Positions 15,401 through 64,000 of a stretch of DNA of 64,000 nt are shown piece after piece. Positions within the stretch are counted from its first letter, which is position 1. Every line of letters starts with the position of its first letter. Under the pieces are notes generated by a model. That model was not told the DNA's origin and searched no databases. It saw only the letters and a program-made list of their open reading frames with translations. The DNA comes from Rhodospirillales bacterium. GTDB taxonomy: Bacteria; Pseudomonadota; Alphaproteobacteria; Bin95. Both the position numbers and the translations under genes were made by a program. The stretch is from NCBI GenBank assembly GCA_038143065.1, contig JAYQLI010000035.1, forward strand, positions 736,001 through 800,000. Direction: 5' to 3'.

Positions 15401-15923
15401 GGCTGCAGCCCGATACGGGTATAAGCTTATGGCTTATAAAGATGAGTACGAGGTTGCGCGCCTCTATTCTGATCCAAAATTCCGGGAGCGCTTAGAGGCT
15501 CAATTCGAAGGTAATTTTGAGCTGCGCTTTAATCTTGCACCACCTCTCATGTCTAAGATTGATCCTGTATCTGGAGAGCCAATCAAAAAAGAATTCGGCC
15601 CATCCATGGAAAAGTGGTTCCGGCAGCTCGCGAAGCTGAAAGCCTTGCGTGGTACTAAGCTGGATATCTTTGGTCGCACGGAAGAGCGCAAGCGCGAAAG
15701 GGCATTAATTAGCGAGTATTCACAGCTGGTTGATAAGATTACAGACGAACTTACGAAAGAAAACTATCAGTTTGCTGTCGGTCTTTTGAGCATCCCCGAA
15801 CACATCCGAGGGTATGGACACGTCAAACTGCGCAACCTCGACATTGCTAAAGCAGAAGAAACCCGCCTTCTGGAAGCCTTTGACAACCCAGATGCTGTGA
15901 AGCTTACCCAGGCTGCCGAGTGA
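12445..15923 (+). CDS. Indolepyruvate ferredoxin oxidoreductase family protein, fused single chain (frameshift near 12980)
   Basis: GTQALVRL..SGYRGSPLG, NEDLAAT, RTPYFCSGCPHN, GDGT..HSG (TPP), CEGCGDC..C/CPSF Fe-S motifs and LMAYKDEYEVARL; GGAGG RBS before ATG 12445. Confidence 0.92.
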
Positions 15924-16639
15924 TGAAAACACTAGATGTTCAAGTATGGCGAGGTAATAAAAACGGAAGTTTTGAAAAATTCGAAGCTCCTGCTCAAGAA
16001 AATCAGACTGTCCTCGATGTAGTGACTTGGATACAGCGGAATGCTGATCCTAGCTTATCTTATAGGTTCGCGTGCAGAGTAGGCATGTGTGGATCATGTG
16101 CAATGACTGTTAACGGCCGGCCGCGCTGGACCTGCCGCACCCACGTCTCACGTGTTGCAAAAGATGGAAAATTAAAAATAGAGCCACTATTAAATCTTCC
16201 AATAATCAAAGATCTAGCTAGCGACCTTAAACCATTCTTTGATAAATGGAATGCAGCAAGAGGTACCTTTGAAGCTGCAATAAAGAGAGAAGATCCTCTT
16301 ATACCAATCTCTCCAGATCAACCGGAACGAGCAGCTGCAAACGCGGCAATTGAATGTATTAACTGTGCCGTCTGCTACTCAGCCTGTGACATGGTTAGTT
16401 GGAAGCCATCCTATTTGGGCCCTGCAGCACTAAATAGAGCATGGGCAGCATGGAACGATGTACGAAATGAAAATCGTTTGGATGTTTTAAAAGCTGTGTC
16501 AGATGATGCTGGATGCCATAACTGCCATAGTCATCAATCTTGTTCAGAACATTGCCCAGTTGGCCTGAATCCAACGATGTCTATTGCCGGTCTCAAACGG
16601 GCAACTTCAAAAGCCTTATTGAAAGGCGATCTGAAGTGA
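15923..16639 (+). CDS. Succinate dehydrogenase/fumarate reductase-like iron-sulfur subunit
   Basis: CRVGMCGSC ([2Fe-2S]), CINCAVCYSAC and CHSHQSCSEHCP clusters; TGATG overlap with the upstream gene. Confidence 0.9.
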   Translation: MKTLDVQVWRGNKNGSFEKFEAPAQENQTVLDVVTWIQRNADPSLSYRFACRVGMCGSCAMTVNGRPRWTCRTHVSRVAKDGKLKIEPLLNLPIIKDLASDLKPFFDKWNAARGTFEAAIKREDPLIPISPDQPERAAANAAIECINCAVCYSACDMVSWKPSYLGPAALNRAWAAWNDVRNENRLDVLKAVSDDAGCHNCHSHQSCSEHCPVGLNPTMSIAGLKRATSKALLKGDLK

Positions 16640-16968
16640 TAACTGCGAAATTATATTTAATTCAGCGAATATCAGCTCTGTTAATGGCTCCGCTTGTAAT
16701 TGCTCATCTCATTGGAATTATCATGGCGGTGCAAGGGGGTTTAACAGCAGACGAAATCTTAGGCCGAACACAAGGTTCCCTTGGGTGGATGTTCTTTTAT
16801 GGTGCCTTTGTGATTCTAGTCGCTGTTCATGGTACTGTTGGTCTTCGTTCAATTTTAATTGAATGGACACCGATTGCTAATCGTATTGTTGACGTCTTAA
16901 CTGCGTTTTGGCTCATTTCAGCGCTAATTCTTGGGCTTCGAGCCGTAGTAGCGGTAACATGGTTGTGA
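16636..16968 (+). CDS. Sdh-like membrane anchor subunit (SdhD-like)
   Basis: QRISALLMAPLV.AH and AVHG..GLR with three TM helices; GTGA overlap. Confidence 0.8.
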   Translation: MITAKLYLIQRISALLMAPLVIAHLIGIIMAVQGGLTADEILGRTQGSLGWMFFYGAFVILVAVHGTVGLRSILIEWTPIANRIVDVLTAFWLISALILGLRAVVAVTWL

Positions 16969-17306
16969 TGAAGCCCACCAGAAAACATTCAGGATATTGG
17001 GCCTTTTTAGTCCACCGCTTGTCTGGTCTCGGGCTTGCCCTCTTTCTTCCATTACATTTCCTTGCTCTCGGTACCGCCATTCAAGGCGCAGCCAAATTGG
17101 ACAGTTTTCTAGAATGGACCGAAAATCCAATAGCTAAATTTGCAGAGATAATTCTCGTGATACTTTTATCTGCTCATTTAACTGGTGGCCTGCGTCTGCT
17201 TGCTCTCGAGTTTTTACCATGGAGCGAGAGGCAAAAAACTTGGATATCCATTGGAGCTGGTATCTCCCTCGCAGCAGGCCTCGCAATGCTTTTTAATCTG
17301 ATTTGA
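16968..17306 (+). CDS. Sdh-like cytochrome b556 subunit (SdhC-like)
   Basis: HRLSGLGL..FL..H and AHLTGGLR.L; TGATG overlap. Confidence 0.82.
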   Translation: MKPTRKHSGYWAFLVHRLSGLGLALFLPLHFLALGTAIQGAAKLDSFLEWTENPIAKFAEIILVILLSAHLTGGLRLLALEFLPWSERQKTWISIGAGISLAAGLAMLFNLI

Positions 17307-22984: not shown

Positions 22985-24177
22985 ATGCAGAAAATTCCTT
23001 GGACCCCGCTTTTACTCACAATGCTCACCCAAGCTGCGGCTACAATGGCGGCATATACCTTATCCACTGCCTCTCCTTATATTGCTCCCGACTTAGGCGT
23101 TGAAAATGAGGATGTCGCACAACTAGTAGCTGTCGTCTATTTATTGGGGGCTATGTCAGCGATGACAGTGCCCCCTTTATTCATCGCTTTGGGGGCATGA
23201 CAATTTCCATAGCCATCTGTGTTGCAACCGCCGCAATGCTATCTATTGCATCGTTTGCCTCTTCCATTGGCATACTGACGTTAGGCGCCCTCAGCTTGGG
23301 CGTTTTATACGGGTCTACTGCTCCATCAAGCAGCCATGTGCTAGCACCTCTTACATCTGAAAAAAGAAGGAATTTTGTATTTTCGGTTCGACAAATTGGC
23401 GTACCTCTGGGAGGAATTCTTGGAGGATTATTAGTACCACCATTGATCTTGATTGGCGGTTGGCGGATTGCATTTCAGGCCCAACTCATATTTGCACTGG
23501 TGATGATATTTGCAATTTTTCTTGTCCGTTCTCGATATGACCACGGACGCGACCGTAACCGAAATGTTTGGAGCTTAAGTGGACCTATTCGGCTTGTGGG
23601 ACTTCTGCGCGAACTACCCGAGATAAGACCTCTCGCAATTGCCGCTTTTGTGTATTCGGGTGCTCAACTGTGTTTTGGAGCATTCATTGTTACACAACTT
23701 GTCCGGGTCTATGGTCAGGACGGATATCACTTTGCCAGTGCCGTCGCACTGGTGGCATTTCAATTATCTGGGATAACTACGCGAATAGTGCTTGGTGTAA
23801 TTGCTGACTCATGGATATCGGCTCGCTGGCTTCTTGTGGCCCAAGGTTTTTTAATGACACTCTCCGCTATAGTTGCTGCAGGTTATGATTCAAGCTGGCC
23901 CTATTGGCTAATAGTAATTAATTGTGCTCTCGCTGGAGCAACAGCAAGCGGTTATACAGGACTTGCTTTTGCAGAATTTGTGCGTATGGGAGGCCCCAAG
24001 CGGACCGCTGAAGCAACTGGCTTAGGAACAGCCCTAATGTTCTTTGGTGTAGCTGCAATGGCCCCTCTTTTTCGTCTTGGGATTGATATCTTTAACGGTT
24101 ACGCCATCCCATATTTTTTGGTCGCTGCGCTAACAGCAGCCAGTGCATTACTTCTAGCAATCGGAACACGCCGATGA
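22985..24177 (+). CDS. MFS transporter, second unit (1-nt deletion near 23180)
   Basis: MQKIPW..QAAATMA; RNFVFSVRQIGVPLGG and RIVLGVIADS. Restoring one T joins this start to ORF 23197-24177. Confidence 0.8.
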
Positions 24178-25021
24178 CTTTTGCTAAACTCACCCCTCAA
24201 TTGTTAATAGATAATGATCACATGGTTGGCTCTTTGTTTGTTAAAGAGTGTCGACCACTGAACCCAACCCAATTGACCACTCCAATTCTTATGGTGCATG
24301 GATCAAATCATGGATGGTGGGCTTGGCGGGTTTGGCAGCCTTTCTTTGCTGCTGCCGGATGGCCAACATACGCATTATCTCTTAGAGGTCATTATGGCTC
24401 TGCCCCGGTCAACGAAAATGATTTCTTAAACCTTAGCATGTCTGACTATGTCGAAGACGTTGCTTCAGTGGCGCGCTGGCTTGGCAAGCCTCCAGTTCTT
24501 ATAGGCCACAGTCTGGGTGGTATAGTAGTTCAAAAGGCGGCAGAGACGATATCTTCAGCAGCTATCGCTCTTATTGCTTCTATTGGTCCGTCAGCCATTG
24601 GTCGCCAAAGACCTGGACCGCCTCCCCCATGGACAAGCCTGTTTTTCCTAGCAAGGCAGAAGCACTCGAACGTTGGATGTACGACCCATGGCCTGAAGAA
24701 CGCTTTGATCAATTTTACGAATGTCTAACCCCTGAATCTCCAGGGGTATTGGCCACATCTGGGACAGGATTAACCGACGTCAATGCAGAATTAATAAAAT
24801 GTCCTGTCCTTTGTGTAGGAGGCTCAGAAGACAAAAGCTATGTCCCAAAAGCGGAAAAACTTGCAAAAATCTACAAAGCTGATTGGTTTGAGCAACCCGA
24901 CGCAGGACATGACATGATGTTAGAGTCTGCATCTTTGGATGTCGCACAGCAAATTAATCAATGGCTGATTGGAAAATTAGGCTTAGAACGGTCATCAAAA
25001 ATCCAAGCGATTAAGCCATAA
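24174..25021 (+). CDS. Alpha/beta hydrolase (frameshift in the C-run near 24625)
   Basis: MVHGS.HG.W, LRGH, GHSLGG nucleophile elbow, GGSED and AGHDMM. Confidence 0.85.
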
Positions 25022-47812: not shown

Positions 47813-48939
47813 CTACCCTTTAAATTCATCCCGGATGGATGAGCCGTGCTGATTAATTTTTGGAGCTAATCCGTACAATGGGGTATCATTAGCCCTTCGC
47901 ACCGGAGGAGCCGGCATATCAATCACACCTTTCTCTGTCTGAACCTCGATACGTCGTAATGCGGGATGGCTAACCATATCCTCAACGCTGTTAACGCTGG
48001 AATGGGCAATATCAGCCTTCCTTAGACGCTCCTGTAGGGTAGATTGGTCAATTGCTTTCAAAACGCGATCTATTTCACCTTCAACAAATTCTCTATTCGC
48101 CATTCTCGACTTGTTTGGCTGACATCTCTCATCAGTCGCCATGCTTGGTTGCTCAAGTACTATTTCAGCAAAACGCCCCCACTCCCGCTCGTTTTGAATA
48201 GCGATCATAGTTAATCGTCCGTCGCCAGTTGCGTAGGCCCCATATGGAACAAGGGCATTGTGGCGAAGTCCCGTTCGAGGCCAATCCCTTCCTCCATGCT
48301 GCTGGAACATTACCGGAGCTGCCATCAAATCAGCCATCGCATCGAACATAGAAACAGCTATGCCAGCCCCACGACCCGTCTTTTCTCGTGCGTACAGAGC
48401 TTCAAGAACGCCAGTTAGTCCGTTTATTCCAGTCGTTAAGTCACAGATTGATACTCCGACGCGGGATGGCTCAGAGGGAGAACCAGTAACAGCCATCAGT
48501 CCACTTTCAGCTTGGACCAAAAGGTCATATGCCTTTGCCGTATCAAAAGGTGCAGGCGCTTGTCCGTAACCCGATATATCTACCGTAATGAGGCGTGGAT
48601 ATAATTCTCTCAGTTCCTCTGAACCAAAACCGGCGCGCTCAGTGGCGCCTGGTGCAAGATTTTGGACCCAAACGTCTGCTTTGGCCAACAATCGGTGCAA
48701 CAATGCTTGGTCAGCTTCATTCTTGATATCTATCGCGAGAGATCTTTCCCACGATTTAACCAGACAAAGAATGATGAAAGCCCCTTTGATGTATCATCAT
48801 ACCCACGAGCAAAATCACCTTCAGCACGCTCTAGCTTAATAACACGAGCCCCAGCATCCGCCATTCGACACGTAAGAAATGGGGCCGCAACTGCTTGCTC
48901 CAAACTTACGACCAGGACGCCTTCGAGAGGACCACTCAT
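47813..48939 (-). CDS. Family III (CaiB/BaiF) CoA-transferase (frameshift near 48735)
   Basis: PLEG..VVSLEQAVAAP...MADAGARVIK.ER..GDFAR.YD, WLNRGK, QNLAPGA and KAYDLLVQAESG. Confidence 0.88.
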
Positions 48940-50136
48940 TAATAGGAACGCGGCATACCGAGCACATGCTCGCCGATAAAGCTAAGGACTAAATTTTGGG
49001 ATATAGGTGCCGTACGATGAATACGTGCTTCTCTGAACTTCCGCTCGATACCGTACTCCTCGGCGAAGGCAAACCCGCCAAATGTCTGGAAACATGTATC
49101 TGCAGCTTTCCAGACAGCTTCAGCAGCTAAATATTTGCCTGCATTAGCCTCAGCCCCACACGGCAACCCAGCTTCAAAAAGCGCTGCCGCTTTTTGAATG
49201 ACAAGCTTAGCTCCCATGAACTGTGCGTAGGCGTCAGCAATTGGAAATTGAATACCTTGATTGGAACCAATAGGCCTGCCAAAAACCTCTCGCTCACGGG
49301 AGTATTCACTGGCCTTTTGAGCAAACCATTGGCAATCCCCAAGAGCTTCAGAAGCAACAAGCACACGTTCTGCATTCATACCATCAAGAATGTACCTAAA
49401 ACCTTTACCCTCTTCGCCAATCAGAGATGATGCTGGAATACGGAGATTATCAAAAAATATCTCCGTCGTGTTATGGTTGATCATTGTCTTGATCGGTTTG
49501 ATCTCTAAACCGTTACCTTTAGCCTCACGCATGTCGACTAAAAATACAGATAGCCCGTCTGTTCTCTTCGCAACTTTTTCTTTTGCTGTAGTGCGAGCCA
49601 ACAAAAGCATTAAGTCAGAATGCTCAGCCCGACTGGTCCATACCTTCTGACCATTAACAACATATTCATCACCGTCACGAACTGCCGTGGTTCTGAGACT
49701 TAGAGTATCAGTACCACTCGTTGGCTCTGTTACTCCAAAAGCCTGGAGTCTAAGTTCACCTGAGGCGATCTTCGGCAGATACATTCTTTTTGGTCATCTG
49801 ATCCATGCCTAAGGACCGTGCCCATTGTATACATTTGCGCATGACAGGCGGCCCCAGAACAACCATTCTTATGAATTTCTTCAAGGATTGCAGCACCCGC
49901 CGACAACGGTAAACCTGAACCACCATACTCTTTCTGGTATCAAAACACCCAGAAAACCGGCATCCAGTCAAAGCTTTTACAAACTCTGTAGGATAACCAC
50001 GCCGTTGATCCAGCTCATGCCAGTATTCTGAGGAAAATCCTTCGCAGAGCTTAGCTAGAGCTTCTCGGATTTCTGGGTAGGTCTCGCCAATCGGCATTAC
50101 AGGCATGTCAGTTGAAATTGAGACGCTATCAGGCAC
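48939..50136 (-). CDS. Acyl-CoA dehydrogenase (frameshifted N-terminal half)
   Basis: YPTEFV.AL, CHAQMY.MG, RLQAFGVTEPTSGTD, NGQKVWTSRAEHSD and IERKFRE. Confidence 0.88.
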
Positions 50137-52701: not shown

Positions 52702-53151
52702 GCCTTCTTCACCTTTCTAACCACTTGCTCAAGAGAATTAAGAAACCGCGACCTGTCCGCCTTAGAAAAAGGGCGCCCCCTCCAGAAGCGCCCAAGGGAT
52801 TAGCGGACCTGATATCCGCCATTAAATCGCGCATGCCTAACTGTTGGCCAATATTTTGAGTGGTGAATAGATCACCATTGTGCCGTATTGCTGCAGCACC
52901 AGCCTCCAGCACTTTTGCGGCTAGTGGGATATCCCCAGTTACACAAATATCCCCTGGGCCCACCCGATCAGCAATCCACATGTCAGCTGCGTCTGCACCC
53001 TGTGCAACTATCACCGTTTCAATGAGAGGATTGGGATTGGGCCGAATGCCCCGTTCGAAACAACGTAGACTTTTAGGCCGTGCCGCTCAGCGACCCTGTA
53101 GGTCTCGTCTTTAACGGGACAGGCGTCGGCATCTATATAAATTACGTTCAT
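52698..53151 (-). CDS. YaiI/YqxD (DUF188) family protein (two indels)
   Basis: [16 protein letters not shown] read from ATG 53151; [16 protein letters not shown]; corrected C-terminus [14 protein letters not shown]. Confidence 0.88.
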
Positions 53152-53211
53152 CCATGTGAGCTACGCTATAACGCCTAGGATTAAAAGAGGACGAGGTCTA
53201 ATCTTCTGATT

Positions 53212-53990
53212 ATGTGGGATTCAATTTACCAGGTAATTCAAACAGCGGGATACCATGGGTTAGCGATAGCGTGCTTAGCATCGCTAATTGCTGGGTTCCT
53301 GCGCGGTTTTATCGGCTTCGGCGCAGCATTGGTAATGACCCCTGTGCTGAGCTTAGTCTATTCTCCAACGATTGCGGTGCCGATTGCATTCCTTTCAGCG
53401 GTTCCCGCTGTTATTCAGTTATTGCCTCCCACAATTAAATATGGAGAGCGGGCCTTTGTCTTACCTCTAGGGCTTACCGCACTTTTTGCATCCCCTGTTG
53501 GGGCGTGGCTTCTATCTAATGGAGATCCAAGAATTTTAAAAATTGGCATCTCATCTTTAATCTTAATAATGGCGTTTGCCTTGTTCAGAGGCTGGCGTTT
53601 CAAAAATCTCCAGGAACAGTAGTTCTAGGAGCGGTCGGTTTACTTTCAGGATTTCTTCAGGGCCTAGCTAGCGTTGGTGGCCCCCCAGCCGTAGCAGCAG
53701 CATTGTCACGACCAGGGGATGTATATGCTCAGCGCGGCAATATTTTAGCAGCAGCCGCAGTCCTCACGGCTTCTAACATAATACCGCTCTGGGCCCTTGG
53801 TCTCTTTAAAGAGCAAACTCTTATTCTTGCGGCAATACTTGTACCACCTCATCTCATTGCTGCGTGGGTTGGCAATCGATATTCTGATGGCCGAGGTAAA
53901 ACACACTTCCATCGCGCAGCCGTCATAATGTTAATAGCAATTGCTTCGACGACTTTGATTCTATCGATTTCTGACTACCTGACCGGTTAG
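53212..53990 (+). CDS. TauE/SafE (TSUP) sulfite-exporter family membrane protein (frameshift near 53610)
   Basis: AGFLRGFIGFGAALV..P.L and the repeat GLLSGFLQGLASVGGPP. Confidence 0.82.
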
Positions 53991-54767
53991 CTGTTTATCA
54001 GCCCACCATCCACATTAAAGCCCTGGCCAGTTATATTGCGAGCACCTGGACCGGCCAAAAATACGGCCATAGCGGCGATATCTTCTGGGTCGTTTCCTCG
54101 GCGGATAGGAATACTTTTCCCAACCTCTTCCTTCAACTCTTCAACCGTTACCCCCTTCTCAGCTGAGCGCGCTGAAAGCAGGCCTTCAACAATTGCTGTA
54201 TAGGTAACACCTGGACATATCGCGTTTACATTAATGTTATTTGGGCCAAGTTGATGCGCTGCTACGTAAGTCATCGCAAGTACCGCACCCTTGGTACCTG
54301 CATATGCACAGTTTGAAGTTCCATAATATCCTCGACCAGCGACTGAAGCGATATTGATAATCCGACCGCCACCTTGAGAAATCATAGTTTTTGCAGCACG
54401 TTGCATGCAAAAAAAACACCTTTGGCATTAACTCTAAACATCCGGTCCCAGTCACTTTCATCAAGGTCCATGATGTGGCGTGCCTGGTAACGCCAGCGTT
54501 ATTTACGATAACGTCTAAACGCCCCATGTCTGTTACCGCTTTAGTTATCATTGAATCGATTGCTTTAAGGTCGCCACAATCGGCTTCAATTGCGCTAGCA
54601 AACCCACCAAATTTTGCGCATTCCGCCGCAACGTTATTGGCAGCTACTCCGTTAATATCAGCAACAGCTACATCAGCACCAGCTTCTGCCAGGGCCCTTG
54701 CACACGCAGCTCCAATTCCTCCACCAGCTCCCGTGACAAGTGTTTTTAGACCCTTGAGCACTGCCAT
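53987..54767 (-). CDS. SDR family oxidoreductase (frameshifts near 54410-54480)
   Basis: TGAGGGIG, NNAG, NIAS, YAGTK and VNAICPG. Confidence 0.9.
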
Positions 54768-54908
54768 ATTATTTCTCCTATTGATTTTAAATCCAGTCAA
54801 ATGGCCTTTTTATAGATACATCCATAACCGTATCGACTGGTGGAGCAATTTCAACTCAATGAGCTGTATACCAGAAGCTTTAGCATTGGTTGCTATACCG
54901 GCCCTATA

Positions 54909-55856
54909 TCAAACCTTAACTGGAGTCTTCAGCGGCTTCCCAGCAAAATGAAGATCAAGGTTCTCAACCGCTAGATCAGCCATTGCATTCCGTGTTGCAA
55001 CAGTAGCACTAGCCTGATGTGGCTGAAGCACAACATTATCTAGATCAAAAAGAGCAGAAGGGACCTTGGGCTCTGCCTCAAAAACATCCAGTCCAGCGCC
55101 CCAAATCCGTTTTGCCATTAAGGCTTCCACTAAAGCTTGCTCGTCTATGACAGAACCACGAGCAACATTTACAATCCATCCTTCTGGTCCCAATGCGTCC
55201 AGAACATTCTTGTTGACAAGGTGGCGCGTCGCAGGACCTCCTGGACAACAAAGCACCAGACCATCTGATTGCTCAGCCAAACGAGCAATATCAGGCTCGT
55301 AAGGATACTGGGCATCGGGCTTTGGACGAGGACCAGTCCATGTCACATTAGCACCAAGAGCTGTCAAACGATCCGCTACAGCGAGCCCAATGCCACCCAA
55401 TGCGACGACACCTATAGGACGACCAACGACCGTTTTATTGAGCGGGAGATCCGCCTTCAACCAACGACCATCACGGACGTAAGCGTCTGCTTTGGGAATT
55501 TCACGCGTAACTGACAAAACAAGTCCAATGGCGAGATTTGCCACTTCAGCACTGAGAACGCCTGGTGTATTTGTTGTTGCCGCACCTTTAGCTAAAGCAT
55601 GACGAACATCAACGCCATCATAGCCAACACCCATAACAGAAATCATCTCCAGGTTAGTTAACGCATCAATCATCGCTGCGTCGACTTTACCGTGGCCCAT
55701 TGTCAGGATGGCGCGGACCTCACTTCCGCGGGCCTCTAAGAGCTCGTCGGTATTTTGGGATTCCCAAAGGCGTAACACTTCGTATCGGTTCCCAAGGCGT
55801 TCGGTAATCCTTGGCGGCATCGCCATCGTTTGGAGAATAACGGGAACGTCAGACAT
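54909..55856 (-). CDS. D-2-hydroxyacid dehydrogenase
   Basis: GVGYDGVD, TNTPGVL, NVARGSV, LDVFEAEP and QPHQASAT. Confidence 0.92.
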   Translation of the reverse strand: MSDVPVILQTMAMPPRITERLGNRYEVLRLWESQNTDELLEARGSEVRAILTMGHGKVDAAMIDALTNLEMISVMGVGYDGVDVRHALAKGAATTNTPGVLSAEVANLAIGLVLSVTREIPKADAYVRDGRWLKADLPLNKTVVGRPIGVVALGGIGLAVADRLTALGANVTWTGPRPKPDAQYPYEPDIARLAEQSDGLVLCCPGGPATRHLVNKNVLDALGPEGWIVNVARGSVIDEQALVEALMAKRIWGAGLDVFEAEPKVPSALFDLDNVVLQPHQASATVATRNAMADLAVENLDLHFAGKPLKTPVKV

Positions 55857-55865
55857 AGACTTAAC

Positions 55866-56504
55866 TCAAACTACCGAAGCAATTTCATCGAAAGCAAACT
55901 TGGGCCCACGTTCCTTAACACTTGCTGGATCACCGTACCCAATATTGCATAGGAAGTTAGCTTTATAAGTGGTGCCTGACAAAAACGTCTCGTTGACCTT
56001 AGCTGCATCAAAACCCGACATAGGACCGCAATCCAGGCCGAGCGAGCGCGCAGCTAAAATCATATAACCACCCATTAATGAGCCATTACGGAAGCTTGCC
56101 TGCTCAGCCATTTCAGGGCTCTTCTCAAACATAGTTTTCATATCACCGTGAGGAAAAGCCTATCCATATGTCGCCAGAATTCTGGATCATAGGCAACAAT
56201 AAGCTGTCACCGGTGCTGTCATTGTTTTTTCGATGTTACCGGAAGATAAACAGGGTTTCAGCTTGTCCTTTCCTTCTCGTGATTTGACAAAAACAAATCT
56301 TGCTGGTGAGGAATTAGCACTAGTTGGTGGTAATAAAGTAAGTTCAATAAGACGATGAAGAAGTGCTTCAGGAACCTTTCTATTTAGCCAGCCATAGCAA
56401 GTCCTACCTTCATGGAAGAGAAGGTCAGCACCATTATCATCAAGCTTTGATACACGCTCTTTCATAGAGGCAAATTTTGACGCTTCTTCATTGGCATTGG
56501 ACAT
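55866..56504 (-). CDS. rutE: RutE-like malonic semialdehyde reductase (nitroreductase fold; frameshifts near 56160-56200)
   Basis: PTSANSSPARFVFV, LSSGNIEKT..AP, RNGSL.GGY.ILAAR.LGLDCGPMSGFD and NFLCNIGYGD. Confidence 0.82.
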
Positions 56505-57546
56505 GTGATTATACATTAGTTGAGAAGTAACTGATCAAACAGTAGTTGAGGATTTTTAAACCTAATTTTAGTAAAACACTTTAGTTATGCATTTGGACCC
56601 ATCCCAAAAATAAAAAAGGCAACGGACACTCCGCACACGTTGGAACTTTTTTTGTCATAATGTGTCGGGGCGAGATCCAATGAAGAAAAAGTCGTATCAG
56701 AGGGTTAATTTTTTATCTTTTTCAAGTTTTTTCATACACCGCATGAGTCTTACTTCACTTATATCAGATGGATTGACACAGAGAATCCTATTATACTCAG
56801 AACGGTATAGTTATGTCCGCACCGCAAAGGCCCAAAGCCAGGTAATTTGTGGCGCACGCTTAAGCATTCAAAGCAACTTGAACAGCGTTAACCGCTTCAG
56901 AACCAAATTTCGCCACTAGACCTTTAACGCTTGGAAAACACCAGCAAACGCGCTACAACATTTCTGACCTACAGCTGTCGTACAAATCCCTCAGAGCTTG
57001 TCCCAATTGGTAATGATTACCTAAAAACTCCCAACAGGCGAACTTGATAAAGATTGATTAAGAAAAGTGAAACCAAACAATACACAAAGGGCCGAGTTGT
57101 GTTTCAGCTATAGAAGGCTTGTCAGCGAACAGCAAAAATAAGCCTATCGAAATTCGGTTGGCATGCAACCAGGATTGGAATGAATATGTTCAAACGCAGT
57201 GTCGTGAAGGTCAAATAATACTTGAGGCTGCGTAAGACGGGGTTTTGGATAACCCCTACCTCAGACTTCGGTAGCCCTAACTGAAAGGAGGCTAATCTTT
57301 CGCTGCCATTATGCCCTCAGATCGGCACTTAACTCCTTGTATTATCTCTTTGCAGAAGCGCGACGTCCCAACTCTAATATTTTTTGGAGCAGCAGATTAC
57401 ACTATTGTAATCCCTAATATACACCAAAAATTATAGACTTTTTCTATTCACACTATGGAAAACACTAAATATAAACCCAATTACGATGGTAAAGTAATAA
57501 TTCATATACATGTTATTTTTTTGACTATATACCATTAACTTACTAC

Positions 57547-60093
57547 TTATTTACTGCTTTTCCCAAATTCGACACCATATAGTTTTCTCTTACATCCTTA
57601 ACTGCAGATAGTTTGCGGCACCATTTTGTGAATTGTGGATAGCAAGATCTCTTAAATATCTAGGCTTTATCCCCCTAGTCTTCATAACCAGTTAACTTAA
57701 CAAATCCACCACCATACTCTTCCTTCTTCTTAAAAGCAGCAATTCCCAAGCGTACATCTGAAAGCGAAACAGGACCCCAGATCCAATACTGATAAATCTT
57801 TGCTTGTAAGCCCAATTTCAGCATTCAAAACTTTAACATTACTGCCTTTGATATGACTATTTTTTCTTCTTTGCGCCATACCCCTCTGTCACCAACCTGT
57901 TTTATCGAAACATTTTCTAGGAAATGCTTCACTTCCAGAAAATCTAAACGTCATTGACATTTTCAAAGACACTTCTTCTAATAGAACCGTTAGAAAAGTC
58001 GCTATCATTATGCGTCGCTATAAACATTTTTAAATGTTGAATTGCTTACAGTAAATGTTGACCTGAATGTGTTCAAAGTCTTCCGCTTTATTGGTAACAA
58101 ATGAGCAGTTCTCCAGCTCCACTTTTGTTTCGTAAAAAGTGACACTTGCAGTCAAGCTTGAATATTCAGGGTTTGGTGCACTTAACTGATGGAAGTTCAC
58201 GTTTCTAAAATATTACCAAAATTTTTACCCGAAATGTAACACCTCCACCAGAGAAATTTGATGATTGTAGTGATATGGGTTGATTTTGTACCAATAAATG
58301 AAATGGTGATCTGCTTATAATTGATGCGTGCCATTGATCAGGTTCACAACTAAACCTGCATTTCCAACACCACAAAACCCCTCAGGGATGAATAAATCTT
58401 TATCTAACTCGATATATGATGAAGAAAAAGTAATTCGTTTAAACTCCTCATCAACCAAAAAGCGTTGATCTCGCTTCAGCCTGTTCAGTGATGAACCCCA
58501 AAATTGAGGCAAATAATTTCCGTCGCTGTCAGAGATAGAAAAAATGGGCAATGTTCGTATTTTGCGGTTTCCCTTCACTCCCAGCGACACGGTAATCAAT
58601 GCTAAGATCAAGCTCGTGATCTCCTGTTCTAAACCTAGTCTCAAACATAGAAGTCGACCCTGGGGGAAGCATCTGCCACCAAAAATAGGCTCTTGGCGAG
58701 AATCATAGTTTGTTCCAACAAGCTCGATTGGCATGATCGACCAATTTTTGATTGTCATTTAACCTGCCCTCCATCAATTTGTTTACTTAATCCCAATAAA
58801 TGCATCTTACTATTAATAAAATTTTAATCTGCGCCTGACGCTGATATAAAACTCTTTAGGAAAATAGAATGGGTACTGCTTTAAATAATATACGCTCTTG
58901 ATGCTCAAACTGGTCGGATATTTCCTGAAAAACTCATCAAGATATTCTAAGTTACTTACACGGACAAGGCTTTCAACAAACCTCTTGTTAAATTATCATT
59001 CGTTAGAAGTTTCTTAAATAGAGGCAAATCTCTGCTCCCTCTAATATTTCCTTACTCAAGAAAATTCTGATTGAGGGGGACCATCTGAAACTCTTAAAGA
59101 GTTGTATTCTTGTAATCGGCTCAACAAGGTTAGAAACTGGGTTAAGGTATAGAAACGTGTTTCATTATTCAACCGCATGCCGGCTATCCATTAACTCTAA
59201 AAATTGCCAGATGCGATGCAAATTTCTTCACATCTAAAATATTCTCAATATCCAGGATACCGTCATTTTTCATTAAATCATGAAACGCAACCTCGATTAA
59301 TCTTGCCGTCGCCTCAGCAGGAGTTTTGTTGTATTTATTTATTTTCATTAAAAATTCCTAACATCACCGTCATTATTGACATTAAATATTATGCCTTCCT
59401 CTGTGCCCATTTCTTGCTCGATAAGCTCTTTCCAAAATGCTCCTCCAGCGCATAAATACCCCAACTCTCCCCGTTTACCTTGAGACTTACAAAAAAATAT
59501 TTAAGAGCTATCAGTCCTTCCCGTCTTTCCAGTTCATGGCCTACCCATTCCACCAAATTATGGCGTGCCTTTGGCGGGAAGTAGTTTGAATTCCGACATT
59601 CCAAGTATTTTTGATCTCTTCCTTACATTAACCTTAAACGCCCTTTTCTTGGCGTTACCAATCATGTCAAGATTCAGGCCAGTTGGAGAAATCTTACTTT
59701 GTAATTCTTACCATTAACCAACAGCTTGGCAGGAACTGAAATTTCTGTTCTTCCTACTAATTTGACCTTTATTCAGCGCAGCTTCTAGCTGCATTGAGTA
59801 ACCATATCTTCAAAATCTATATTATTTCAAATTATGCGTATCAACGCCAAAACTGGATACATAGTTTCTAAAAACCTTCAGTTTTTTGTTTTCGTGGCGT
59901 CGTAAATCACTTTGCGCCGACGCGGCAGTTTGGTTGCGCTGAAGATTGGCACCCAGTAAAATGCAGAAAAAGCCAAAACCCGCCAAGAAAAGACATAGAA
60001 AAAACCCAATCACGGTCTGTTTTGGAACAGATATCTCTACAAATTTTTAAAAAATTTCTCCAGTATATTCTTACTCGGCAAAACTACCTTCAT
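57547..60093 (-). CDS. Membrane-anchored CotH kinase-family protein with C-terminal beta-helix repeats (about 850 aa; many frameshifts)
   Basis: Fragments read by hand: N-terminal TM (IGFFLCLFLAGFGFFCILLG); LKVNGESWGIYALEEHFGK; DVKKFASHLAI..HAV..RFY.NPVSNLVEPI; LTASVTFYETKV; DSDFSNGSI; NAEIGLTSKDLS; AAFKKKEEYGGG; LYGVEFGKSSK* at 57547. Confidence 0.72.
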
Positions 60094-60096
60094 TTG

Positions 60097-60782
60097 CTAC
60101 ATTACCTTTCTCGTATCCAGGAAACGCACCTCAAGCGTAGGATCAAAATCAAGCAAACTATTTTGAAGATCGGTCAAGTGTGAGCTGCTAATAATGCTAG
60201 CAGTGAAAGAAATTTCGAAGACTCTGGCGTACTATCCAACCTCTTTAAGTCAGCAGATTCAGAATAACGAGAGAGAATTTCTGATTATCTGCTTCGGCTG
60301 CACCCGATCTGACCAGGCTTATTTATGGTTACAAACATTACATTTGAATCATGCGGATCACTAAACATTTGTTTGCGAAAAAATTAATGCCGACAACATA
60401 AACACAAAGCCAATTGACGTGATAATTATTTGGTTAGCGCCGTAGCCAACACCAACCATTATGCAAACAAACAAAATACCACCTCTGGTTCTTTTATCGC
60501 GGATCGAAAACGAACAATTGATAAAGCACCGACTAGGCCAAGTGATAACGCCAAAGATGACTTGACAATTGTTATAATCACCATTGTAGCCAAAGACTAA
60601 TGGAACGAAAATTTTGCCAAAAAGGCCCGATCAGAGAGCGATAAACCATATTTTTTGTAAATTTGTTGCAACAAAATAGCTGCAATAGATGTTAAAATTA
60701 AACCGATTAGAAATTCCAGAACTGAAACAGGTGTATTAGTAACAGCTAAGAACTTATTCATTAATTCATTGGTGACTTCCAT
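60097..60782 (-). CDS. DUF4956 family membrane protein (frameshifted)
   Basis: After the ORF 60597-60782 the minus strand reads ATMVIITIVKSSLALSLGLVGALSIVRFRSAIKEP, the DUF4956 signature; ends ..EVRFLDTRKVM*. Confidence 0.82.
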
Positions 60783-60858
60783 TTAATTACCCTTTTCAGT
60801 TCTTAACTAATAATAACGCCTAGGTATCAGTAAAAAATATGAACAATATAAGCTATTC

Positions 60859-61536
60859 TTAGTTGCTACTCCAATTTCGAAGATTATCAATGCCAAAGAC
60901 ATACTTTGAACTTTTTGTAACTCGACTTCTTTAAAGCTCTGAGAAATGCTTCAGCTTTCGAAAAAGCCTCTGGCGAATTTAATTTCAACAATAACCGAAC
61001 GCGAACGGAACGGTGACGGGTGACAGCCGCAGAGGATTGATGTCATAAAATTTAAGTTGGTATCGACCGTTAATCTGAATTCTGCATCCCTATTCAAGAA
61101 GTACTGCCTATCATAGGAATTAACTAACGTCGGCTCGAGAAGACCAACATCAACAAAATTCTTACCAAATTTTTCAACTACTTCTCTATTTTTGAAATTT
61201 ATTATATTTTTAGTTGTAATTTTTTTAGAAAAATCAAATAACACGGGCTCTATCTCATTTATCTTTCCAGCCCTAGCATTCCAGATTTATCTTAATCTCC
61301 AGGATGGGAGAATTAGAAATGTCTTTTAATCCGCCGTACCATCTTAATCTGACTTTTTCTGACTTTTTCACCCTCAACATTATCAGCAAACGAAGATAGA
61401 TCAAAAGTATCAAAATATATATTGTTAATTTGCCGCTTATGATGAATTGATCGAAGTGCATCAGGTGTGTTTTCACCCTGTATAAAACCTCATGAATATC
61501 AGTGTCATCTATAAAAATTTTAAGTTCATATCTCAT
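60859..61536 (-). CDS. VTC-domain (CYTH-like) polyphosphate polymerase-like protein (frameshifted)
   Basis: MRYELK, NIYFD, KVRLRWYG, LEIK, YDRQYF, RLTVD, VEIKF and a terminal SKY motif across fragments. Confidence 0.82.
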
Positions 61537-61769
61537 ATTAGTGCCCCTACCTCATCGATGAATTCAACAAAAATCCATCGAACACTCCGGGATTCATAGA
61601 GTTAATCAGGATCTATGGACTTACAAAAATATCAATCCAGTTAGCAAACACCATTACAATTTCATTTAGGCAAAATACTTTTTATGAACTAGTGAGGCAC
61701 CAAAACCTGTTTCTAATCATATGCTGTCAGCGGACAGACTTTTTCATACTTAAGGTATTTTTGTTTTAA

Positions 61770-62770
61770 CTATAGTTTAAACGCCCCTTTTGATGCCAGC
61801 GCCATGCGTCTGTTATGATTTTTTTTAAATCTGGATCGATGTGCAGACCAACCCAGTTCATTAAATGCGCGCATTGAGCCAGACACGAGCCTACTACAGT
61901 CCCCAGGCTGCCTTCTCAGCCACATTCACTGCTAGCTTGCGACCAGTAACACTCGATATGTTTTCTGTTACCTCTTTTTAACAGAGAACCCAGCTCCTGT
62001 CCCAAGATTAAATACGCCACATGTATTACCATTTTCCAACCATTTAAGACCCAAAATATGAGCATCAACTAAGTCACATACATGCACATAATCACGAATA
62101 CATGTTCCATCAGGGGTAATCATAGTCATCACCAAAAATTGTAAACTCGCCGCCTTTACCATCAACTGCAGCAAGTAAGTAGGGATTGGTGGAGTTTCTA
62201 TTGATGATATTCACAATTTCGAGCTTTCAGGGTCTGCCCCGCTACGATTGAAATACCTAAATATAACATAATTAAGATTAAATGATGCTCTAGTTCGCGA
62301 TAATGTTTTCGACAGCGAGCTTTGACGCTTCCCATAAGCATTTGTTGGATTTTGCAAACTGTTTTCGTCCAACAACACGTTGTCCTGCTCACCATACGTT
62401 GCACAAGTCGAAGAAAAGATAAAATTCCTTACACTCGTGTTCAACAGCTGACTGAATCAAATTCAATGAGCCCAAAACATTGTTTTTCCAATATTTGTCG
62501 GGAACGTGCATACTCTCATGAACTTGGCTAAGCGCAAAGTGCATGACCGCTACAGGCAAATATTTTTTAAATACATCATCTATTCGCTTTTTTTGTTTCG
62601 AAGATTCTACTAATTCGAAAGGGTCAGGAATTTCGCGGCCTCTTCCTTGCCGGTATATAAATTATCAACGGTGTCGCTTGGAACATAGCCTGCTATCTTC
62701 AAGCTCTTGCACGCATGTGAACCAATGCCATGCTGTACCTACCAGGTAACCAAGACTACTTTGCTGACTA
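61770..62770 (-). CDS. galE: UDP-glucose 4-epimerase (heavily error-ridden)
   Basis: [61 protein letters not shown] and IITDAWRW. Confidence 0.85.
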
Positions 62771-62774
62771 TACT

Positions 62775-63300
62775 ATCCCGCTCCAATTTTCGAGCTTGTG
62801 AATTTAATTTTTAACGCAAACGTTGCGGCCGCAAAAAGTCCAACAAGCACAAATAAAGCTGCTGGGAAGCCAAGCGCTGGGGTGCGCTCATACATAAACC
62901 GAACTAAAGCGCGAGAAGATAAAAGTTTCAGTGATATGCTTCACACCACTAACAAGGGCCACAACAGACCACACAAGGCCGCCCAAGAAACTTACACTGT
63001 AACAAGTGCATCGCCATCAGCCAATCTAATGATTTCGTAATTTGCGGACGCAATACTACTGAAAATCCCGTCATACAACAATTGACGTTCAATAAACAAA
63101 GGATAAACCAAAAATATCCAAATCAAAAATGAATTCAGAAAGTATAAATTCCGTTTATCCCAAGACTGTTGCATCGGTGGCATTTCATACTCACGAAGGG
63201 ATAAATATACGACGGAAATCAGTCCATAGTACAAGAATAGCAATAAGAAATACCGTCGCCCCGCTCCGATCTTTAGAAATGATAAATTATAACAAAGGTT
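62775..63300 (-). CDS. Fragments of an uncharacterised multi-pass membrane protein
   Basis: Hydrophobic ORF pieces (62992-63243; ..PALGFPAALFVLVGLFAAATFALKIKF..); may be the C-terminus of the gene at 63300-63891. Confidence 0.35.
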
Positions 63301-63891
63301 TAAGCGTGATATAAGTCATTGAAAAGAATAAAATGCCAGCAACTAAAAATATTAAGAACCAAAATCTCTTTAGTTCCGTGGGCATGCAGATAGACGTACA
63401 AAGGTAAAAACAAAAATGCTATGTGCGAAGGCTCATTGTAAACGCCGATACTCTTATCCCTGAGCAAGGGCGTACTGAATTTACATATGAAAAGTTTGCA
63501 AAGGCCTGGTATACTTAGCTCAAAACAACCGCAACTACAATTGAGAAAACGGATGCAAAAAAGAGCCCATTTTAATGATTTTAAATCGATTTTCCGAGAA
63601 ATAATAATCGCTACAACAACTAATAATAATTGCTTAAAATAATAAAAATTATTGTTGAAAGTCACAGAATTATCAAAATTTGAAAAAAATTGTCAGTAAT
63701 AAAAAAGAAATTACTAATATAAATGCAATATCTTGCACCTTCCATTTTGTGTTTGAATAATTATAAAAAAGTAGACCAATTAAAGGTAATTGCGACTTTC
63801 CTGCAGATAAAAATGCCGGGAATAAAAAAAATGAATAAATTGTTCTTTTAAAGAAATGTTTCACGATAATACTTTTCAATCTCGATAGCAT
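63300..63891 (-). CDS. Putative polysaccharide polymerase (Wzy/EpsG-like) fragments
   Basis: Very AT-rich, Phe/Ile/Leu-rich TM segments with GVYNEPSHIA, resembling the G.F.EPS loop of Wzy-like proteins; upstream of galE. Confidence 0.45.
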
Positions 63892-64000
63892 CCTATTGGT
63901 GAATATTTATTATTTTTTGTTATCCATTTTAATATTATCAATATAAAAATCCTCCCCAGTTTGAAACTAGGAATTGTTTTCCAAAAACTGATCTTACGAC

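Follow-up and report, generated by a model that had tools for sequence, protein, structure and literature searches.

A VTC, DUF4956 and CotH-like gene cassette on a low-GC surface-glycan island of a marine alphaproteobacterium

Genes for a polyphosphate polymerase-like protein, a DUF4956 membrane protein, and a CotH protein have been described side by side at exopolysaccharide loci of Gram-positive bacteria. Whitfield et al. 2020 (PMC7112168) report a set of accessory genes contiguous with the pel operons of streptococci, clostridia, and bifidobacteria, namely cotH, a gene for a polyphosphate polymerase, DUF4956, and DUF4832, so that the link of the trio to exopolysaccharide loci is already published. 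The three proteins also appear in a Streptococcus intermedius preprint, according to which their role is still to be determined (10.1101/2024.04.20.589940), and a Clostridium perfringens paper places the same families in NELoc-2. Here we analyze a cassette of VTC-domain, DUF4956, and CotH-like genes in a 64,000-nucleotide stretch of a Rhodospirillales bacterium (GCA_038143065.1); this stretch, positions 736001-800000 of contig JAYQLI010000035.1 (C35), is called the window throughout. C35, at 2.86 Mb, is the largest of the 52 contigs of this 4.63-Mb genome, a metagenome bin with an estimated contamination of 5.5%. The best explanation of the locus is that the cassette is a copy of a widespread VTC/DUF4956/CotH-like set, brought into a marine alphaproteobacterium on a surface-glycan island of about 25 kb with a low guanine-plus-cytosine (GC) content.

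Three genes read through their frame breaks

Between 61536 and 57547, nothing longer than short minus-strand pieces appears in an ordinary list of open reading frames (ORFs). We read the genes through with our own frameshift-aware protein-to-DNA aligner, using intact relatives as guides, and obtained the following cassette:

60860-61536, minus strand: VTC-domain gene (triphosphate-tunnel, Vtc4-like), placed by PF09359 fragments and alignment to P0184
60097-60782, minus strand: DUF4956 membrane protein gene, placed by PF16316 and alignments to P0102, P0035, P0042, and L038
57547-60093, minus strand: CotH-like gene with an N-terminal membrane helix and a beta-helix-type tail, colinear with L038a and P0242

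Because the frame-aware alignments run from start to stop, the three genes are full-length, in order, and colinear with intact relatives. The DUF4956 stop codon TAG (60099-60097) is followed by CAA and then by the CotH-like ATG at 60093. An earlier note on this DNA, made from the sequence alone, had described three co-oriented genes hidden by frame breaks, with 3 nt between the DUF4956 stop and the CotH-like start; the alignments and the TAG-CAA-ATG read in the sequence agree with it on both counts.

The VTC family is recognizable in the unrepaired ORF fragments, three of which match PF09359 colinearly at hidden Markov model (HMM) positions 35-66, 60-87, and 124-202. The last of these (61286-60954) scores 32.5 bits, above the curated cut-off of 23, and the read-through in a profile search of the genome scores 34.8 bits; a word-index search with the 111-residue VTC fragment returned nothing at E ≤ 0.001. 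The closest relatives reach 100-106 bits against the same family. The nearest of them, P0184, carries the source label of a polyphosphate polymerase domain protein from a Paracoccaceae metagenome-assembled genome (MAG) and aligns to 61539-60868 with 120/218 identical residues, nine frameshifts, and no stop. In columns defined from 60 relatives, the frame-corrected reading keeps 20/20 invariant and 22/25 near-invariant residues. These relatives are proteins of about 230 residues that hold the VTC domain only and have no hydrophobic segment. Their family profile matches the catalytic domain of yeast Vtc4 (3g3q) at E 4.4e-14, and Vtc2 and Vtc3 as well. An invariant bacterial R-Y-E-x-K motif aligns with Vtc4 R196...K200, its lysine opposite K200, a residue that Hothorn et al. 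are said to have found catalytic in 2009.

The DUF4956 gene required fewer repairs. PF16316 gives 29.3 bits for the fragment 60596-60462, under the cut-off of 30.6, and 32.5 bits, over it, for the read-through in the genome profile search. The gene aligns with the L038 protein over its whole length (60782-60100; 109/222 identical), with five frame changes and one TAA (60285-60287), on which the four relatives P0102, P0035, P0042, and L038 agree, and it keeps 12/12 invariant and 40/48 near-invariant residues. The relatives have several hydrophobic segments. In a structural model of the L038 protein (mean predicted local distance difference test score, pLDDT, 85.6), five helices are followed by a beta-alpha-beta-beta-alpha-beta domain that is similar to ferredoxin-like domains, ACT and PII-like ones among them (Foldseek E about 1e-3 to 2e-2; VIA Z ≤ 10.4). 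Foldseek against the PDB gave no match to the model at E ≤ 0.001 and returned only ferredoxin-like domains, over residues 145-229; the fold searches, which barely probed the membrane part, gave no structural partner for it. The sole match to another Pfam family is a weak one to MgtC (P0001, E 9e-4, 20 bits; L038, E 0.28). DUF4956 looks MgtC-like with an ACT-like tail.

The identity of the third gene comes through its relatives. A single window fragment reaches 18.9 bits against PF08757, under the cut-off of 23.8, and a genome-wide CotH profile search gave no match at E ≤ 0.001. The gene is nevertheless colinear from start to stop (60093-57550) with 851-residue relatives, identical at 349/803 positions to L038a and at 373/797 to P0242 (43-47% identity) once about 35 frame changes are admitted. 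The colinear relatives pass the Pfam CotH cut-off with 38.9 bits, and their family profile matches the solved CotH of Bacillus cereus (5jd9; E 1.2e-17, about 330 residues aligned). The CotH-like protein of L025 on its own found nothing in the PDB at E ≤ 1 by phmmer. The window gene keeps 6/7 invariant and 54/66 near-invariant residues. Its reading paths contain at most four in-frame stops, sited where another frame matches better (TAA-TGA at 59167-59162, for example), and these stops are ambiguous. The relatives share a single N-terminal hydrophobic segment. PF13229 (Beta_helix) matches two relatives, L022 with 34.8 bits and L023 with 26.7 bits, but none of 32 window fragments and not L038a.

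The three family assignments of the earlier note therefore stand, by somewhat different routes. Pfam found VTC and DUF4956 in the window itself, whereas CotH and Beta_helix were reached through relatives; the beta-helix in particular is seen in two relatives and in no window fragment. NCBIfam gave no family for any of five relatives.

The earlier note had called the third protein a kinase, and at this point the alignment is less favorable. A histidine that is near-invariant in the clade (H309; at least 90% of 93 relatives) aligns with the position of the catalytic aspartate D224 of 5jd9, and the window reads R-H there. The aspartate usual for the clade, after E-P-I, aligns with 5jd9 D247; in L038a, P0242, and the window it is replaced, the sequence being E-Y-N-S-L-R instead, although the window reading crosses a frame break at this place and is less certain. 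By a constant +4 offset, D224 and D247 would correspond to D228 and D251 of the Bacillus subtilis protein, both of which, according to PMC7821199, are needed for activity and inactivate CotH when mutated. At other loci, where canonical CotH genes lie beside VTC and DUF4956, both aspartates are retained. Because histidine replaces the catalytic aspartate of the kinase, the chemistry of the CotH-like protein is probably not ordinary ATP-dependent protein phosphorylation, and the name kinase is doubtful for the clade of the window; in its subclade the second aspartate is also replaced.

A low-GC island and the source of its frame breaks

The low-GC island spans C35 from about 792.5 to 817.3 kb, so that part of it lies beyond the window. 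Its surroundings in and next to the window are as follows:

56520-64000: window part of the ~25-kb low-GC island, nearly all genes frame-broken, delimited by GC and ORF coverage
61770-62749, minus strand: galE-like gene (NAD-dependent epimerase), upstream of the cassette, in several frame-broken pieces, placed by three PF01370 fragments
62776-63998, minus strand: hydrophobic ORF fragments, once called Wzy-like, without Pfam match at E ≤ 0.01
52709-56516: split genes of normal GC left of the island, recognized as adjacent same-strand ORF pairs
L029 17417-20000 and C35 819264-820525: frame-broken core genes right of the island (amtB, amidase, glnK)

The galE-like gene is recognized by three fragments, all between 62661 and 61971, that fit the NAD-dependent epimerase family colinearly (HMM positions 52-111, 105-176, and 197-240); the relatives compared, at 31% identity, were too distant for its breaks to be counted. 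Of the two upstream neighbors named in the earlier note, this one holds. The Wzy-like fragments found no family support: the genome search gave no Wzy_C or EpsG match for them, these being very diverse families and the fragments broken. Beyond the window, Pfam fragments of the island include a radical SAM protein, two GT1 glycosyltransferases, a ManC-like mannose-6-phosphate isomerase with nucleotidyltransferase, phosphomannomutase domains I and II (ManB-like), and another nucleotidyltransferase; weaker matches to GNVR (Wzz-like) and SLBB (Wza-like) pieces follow, and then glnK and amtB. Since its fragments match glycan families, the island amounts to about 25 kb of surface-glycan genes, as the earlier note had proposed for the setting of the trio.

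DUF4956 is found in 0/36 other genomes of the same GTDB family and in 10/300 sampled genomes of the phylum, which points to horizontal gain. The DNA of the trio matched none of 40 relatives. No tRNA gene was found at the island edge in 52-64 kb of the window, and synteny beyond glnK was of no help in defining an insertion site. The closest relative of the cassette is L038, which carries two complete trios, one of them in the gene order of the window; in L041, the neighbors, judged by eye only, are an epimerase, a GT2 glycosyltransferase, and GDP-sugar enzymes. The trio is multiplied side by side in some genomes, with two copies in opposite orientation in L038 (470-8917) and three in L143 (8192-18639), a Kordiimonadaceae MAG.

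The trio holds about 49 frame breaks of one or two bases (about 9 in the VTC gene, 5 in DUF4956, and about 35 in the CotH-like gene), roughly one per 70-130 bases, with one clear stop, the TAA at 60285; a few other stops are ambiguous. We regard them as probable consensus errors of a long-read assembly, the genes being intact in the organism. Poor coverage or polishing of the island stretch would produce such breaks and, because the island is strain-specific, this stretch may well have been poorly covered or polished. We measured ORF coverage as the bases in open frames of at least 100 residues per 4-kb bin and found that it falls to 0-0.45 in the six bins that cover 792-816 kb of C35, compared with 0.8-1.0 in neighboring bins. 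This zone coincides with a drop in GC content, to 0.35-0.40 from the value of about 0.47 that the flanks show. Bins with coverage below 0.6 number 100/1131 in the whole assembly and lie mostly on small contigs; on C35 they occur only at 1-8, 792-816, 1400-1416, and 1776 kb. This pattern is consistent with a long-read metagenome bin that was polished unevenly.

The breaks also run out of the island on both sides. To the right, amtB has five frameshifts and no stop (313/418 identical to the ortholog of the same genus), the amidase has three frameshifts and one TGA (293/418 identical to its same-genus ortholog), and glnK diverges at the gene end only. To the left, genes of normal GC are split at 52709-53151, 53212-53990, and 53987-54800, and a nitroreductase at 55866-56516 lies in halves that match PF00881 at positions 5-66 and 103-167. 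Overlapping or abutting same-strand ORF runs at window positions 15920-17306, 24174-25021, and 48939-50136 may be further breaks, here in parts of the window that are clean otherwise.

If the island and its cassette were truly decaying, the glycan locus would be off and its genes would be pseudogenes gathering small indels. Surface-glycan loci are often lost or replaced, every island gene examined is broken, and the TAA in DUF4956 and the TGA in the amidase look like true nonsense codons, which no frame path that we tried explains. Nonetheless, we consider decay unlikely. The breaks reach the conserved core genes amtB and amidase, at 75% and 70% identity to their same-genus orthologs; no segment of the cassette has been lost, its genes aligning end to end; and across the trio 38/39 invariant and 116/139 near-invariant residues are kept. 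ORF coverage is normal over the rest of the 2.86-Mb contig, so that there is no genome-wide decay. Stops are also far fewer than neutral decay predicts: when 49 indels were simulated in the intact L038 genes, a mean of 7.5 stops accompanied 3 substitutions per indel and 12.3 accompanied 5, and the probability of three or fewer stops was 0.05 and 0.002, respectively.

Several points weigh against assembly error and in part favor decay. Real pseudogenes gather several substitutions per indel, and the ratio used in the simulation is general background of this kind. Break sites show no homopolymer enrichment (15/49 compared with 15.5 expected, at sites that are placed only roughly, at 45-55% identity), and the classic nanopore signature is absent. 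The two stop codons just named count here too. No sequencing run is listed for the assembly, which makes the case for error indirect. On balance, we still read the breaks as assembly errors, in keeping with the advice of the earlier note to polish the stretch with raw reads.

A chimeric assembly, in which noisy reads of another low-GC marine organism were joined in and the cassette is foreign to the genome, would account for the GC contrast with the host, for nearest relatives on low-GC marine contigs (GC 0.29 in L038, 0.23 in L041), and for the absence of DUF4956 from all 36 other genomes of the family, and the contamination estimate of the bin would allow it. We judge it highly improbable. 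The error-rich stretch is unbroken: it takes in host-type genes at 52.7-56.5 kb to the left, the island itself, and then the host-type glnK, amtB, and amidase, which are 70-75% identical to same-genus orthologs, as expected from reads that span a real insertion. The closest VTC relative is labeled as a Paracoccaceae MAG, which makes horizontal gain by such bacteria plausible. A different genetic code or programmed frameshifting was rejected, the breaks being mixed in sign, irregularly spaced, and present in amtB too.

The apparent pseudogenes are thus probably noise of the assembly that is limited to the strain-variable island and the genes at its margins. In these places, neither the gene calls of this genome nor its counts of pseudogenes are to be trusted, and the window copy is a poor specimen of the cassette.

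Distribution and neighborhoods of the cassette

The trio is kept together across phyla, often among glycan genes. At E ≤ 1e-10, DUF4956 has at least 7999 relatives; the VTC protein has 2177 at E ≤ 1e-8, and the CotH-like protein of about 850 residues has 1988 cluster representatives at E ≤ 1e-30. We surveyed DUF4956 loci in species-representative genomes and took the 80 best, which cover many phyla and include some archaea. A VTC gene is present in 66 of these loci, and VTC together with a CotH-type gene in 57, in line with the co-occurrence that the earlier note had stated. The 66 VTC loci comprise 47 with a CotH-like gene of the window type, 15 with canonical CotH (5 of them with both types), and 9 without CotH. 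DUF4956 stands alone in 2/80 loci, and most of the remaining loci are cut off by the end of their contig. In the phylum sample, the DUF4956 loci of its 10 positive genomes include six intact trios. A metagenome survey that started from a CotH fragment gave all three genes in 10/80 cases and CotH only in 61/80, mostly as lone CotH genes on short contigs, and is a poor test of linkage.

Elsewhere, polysaccharide genes lie near the trio in many loci, though not in all. A Pfam scan of neighbors took in 15 loci, with 128 neighbor ORFs (about 12 loci) lying outside it. Clear sugar-nucleotide or glycosyltransferase genes lie within 9 kb in 8/15 scanned loci, a count without a proper control, but 3/15 have only marginal sugar genes and 4/15 have none, which counts against the working proposed below. 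In a cruder phmmer survey of 24 further loci, from which query sources and Pfam-scanned loci were excluded, at least one such neighbor was found in 7/24 loci compared with 6/150 random windows of C35, the contig of the cassette; since all control windows come from one genome and the queries favor other phyla, this comparison is indicative only. In a Pelagibacteraceae single-cell genome (L187 8977-12948), ilvC and leuA flank the trio and sugar genes are absent within 9 kb, so that a glycan context is not obligatory.

Two other kinds of neighbor bear on phosphate. A family-I pyrophosphatase gene adjoins the trio in 6/80 loci and in 0/150 control windows:

Family-I pyrophosphatase beside the trio: L164 13380-14042, L169 13433-14110, L179 13141-13782, L185 13332-13985, L190 8280-8882, and L150

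These trio-adjacent pyrophosphatases carry an N-terminal extension of 40-60 residues, and in Bacteroidota and a Rickettsiales MAG the enzyme may belong to the set as its fourth member; no family-I pyrophosphatase was found in the genome of the window. In two genomes of the same class, DUF4956 and VTC pairs without CotH adjoin PHO4 phosphate transporters (L017 9721-12869 and L018 7326-10312), and a PHO4 gene lies 6 kb from a full trio in L176 (15463-16500). The PHO4 neighbors hint at a role of the DUF4956 and VTC core in phosphate economy. In addition, HlyD-type periplasmic adaptor genes adjoin the trio in two loci of the phylum, L022 9667-13155 (with an ABC transporter) and L024 6415-7563.

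Possible working and comparison with known systems

The predicted folds and locations suggest a tentative working for the cassette as a whole, in which phosphate-polymer chemistry would be linked to envelope modification. The soluble tunnel enzyme would act on ATP or triphosphate at the inner face of the membrane and would make polyphosphate like Vtc4 or at least handle phosphoanhydride bonds. DUF4956, being MgtC-like, would be its membrane partner, with the ACT-like tail sensing a small ligand. The CotH-like protein would be held by its single N-terminal helix, with the kinase-fold domain and the beta-helix outside the cytoplasm, and would modify a glycan or envelope component bound by the beta-helix.

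The functional alternative, which we consider possible though no more than tentative, dispenses with the polymer. No polyphosphate would be made or exported: the VTC protein would be a triphosphatase-like hydrolase, DUF4956 an MgtC-like regulator, and the CotH-like protein a non-kinase transferase or glycan binder, with pyrophosphate as a by-product. The glutamate of the tunnel-hydrolase motif R-Y-E-x-K is kept in the bacterial proteins, unlike in Vtc4, which has threonine there, and for this reason bacterial VTC proteins may be hydrolases and not polymerases. The weak MgtC match and the ferredoxin-like tail of DUF4956, the histidine at the catalytic position of the CotH-like clade, and the pyrophosphatase genes beside the trio all lean the same way. 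In favor of phosphate-polymer chemistry are the conservation across 60 relatives of all 20 invariant residues of the tunnel, the K200-aligned lysine among them, and the DUF4956 and VTC pairs beside PHO4 in L017 and L018.

The earlier note had gone further and read DUF4956 as an exporter through which polyphosphate made in the cytoplasm reaches the outside and serves there as a donor. We hold this full chain to be doubtful. What was seen of DUF4956 is the weak MgtC match and the ACT/ferredoxin-like C-terminal domain, and neither Pfam nor the fold searches gave a likeness to a known channel. The same low standing applies to a more specific version, in which the cassette would correspond, in bacteria and in split form, to the eukaryotic VTC complex: polyphosphate, made by the tunnel protein on DUF4956 and passed by the latter across the inner membrane, would feed the anchored CotH-like enzyme, which could form a phospho-histidine intermediate at its conserved histidine and would phosphorylate a glycan held by the beta-helix. 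This too we think rather improbable. The literature tells against the polymer-based working in one further respect: our search of it, in the parts of the sources that were accessible, returned no biochemical data on the proposed mechanism or on any bacterial VTC member and no functional test of the trio, which agrees with the statement in the earlier note that it has no established function.

The cassette is among the commonest gene sets without a functional test in bacteria and archaea. If a Vtc4-type enzyme is indeed coupled to extracytoplasmic chemistry, it would provide a new route of phosphate or energy supply to the envelope; and if the CotH-like enzyme is fed by polyphosphate, the island polysaccharide would receive phosphate decoration from an ATP-independent donor.

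Among known systems, MgtC/SapB/YhiD (PF02308) has the same layout as DUF4956: after a few membrane helices comes a small soluble domain that is ACT-like. The MgtC match of P0001 spans HMM positions 1-118 of 121 and stays under the Pfam cut-off of 31.4 bits, and one data source labels DUF4956 relatives YhiD-like. We know of no MgtC-type function or partner for DUF4956.

The spore-coat kinase CotH of Bacillus (5jd9/5jda) belongs to a homologous atypical kinase fold family, whose Pfam model the relatives of the window protein pass. It differs from the CotH-like protein at the two aspartates, the first being a near-invariant histidine in the clade and the second being replaced in the subclade of the window. 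The CotH-like protein, of about 850 residues, also has a membrane anchor, its C-terminal half is of beta-helix type, and it has no sporulation context.

The yeast VTC complex (Vtc4 with Vtc1/2/3; PDB 3g3q, 7ytj, and 8i6v) shares with the bacterial protein a homologous tunnel domain, with its basic residues and the K200-aligned lysine. As in eukaryotic VTC, the soluble catalytic domain is tied to a small polytopic membrane protein, here genetically. In contrast to the eukaryotic proteins, the bacterial VTC protein is a stand-alone domain of about 230 residues without an SPX domain or membrane helices of its own and with the glutamate of the hydrolase motif, and DUF4956 has no Pfam link to the Vtc1-type membrane domain.

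The closest counterpart is the accessory set of the pel operons. That set consists of a cytoplasmic polymerase-like protein, a membrane protein of about four transmembrane helices with an ACT domain, and a secreted or surface-exposed CotH. The host here is Gram-negative, and the neighbors are galE, mannose-nucleotide, GT1, and Wza-like genes instead of pel; no DUF4832 gene was seen. The CotH-like protein here has a beta-helix tail and histidine in place of aspartate, whereas the preprint protein is said to keep its catalytic residues. In both cases, the same three families are contiguous with an exopolysaccharide locus. The cassette described here is a further member of this known module, to which it adds little that is new.

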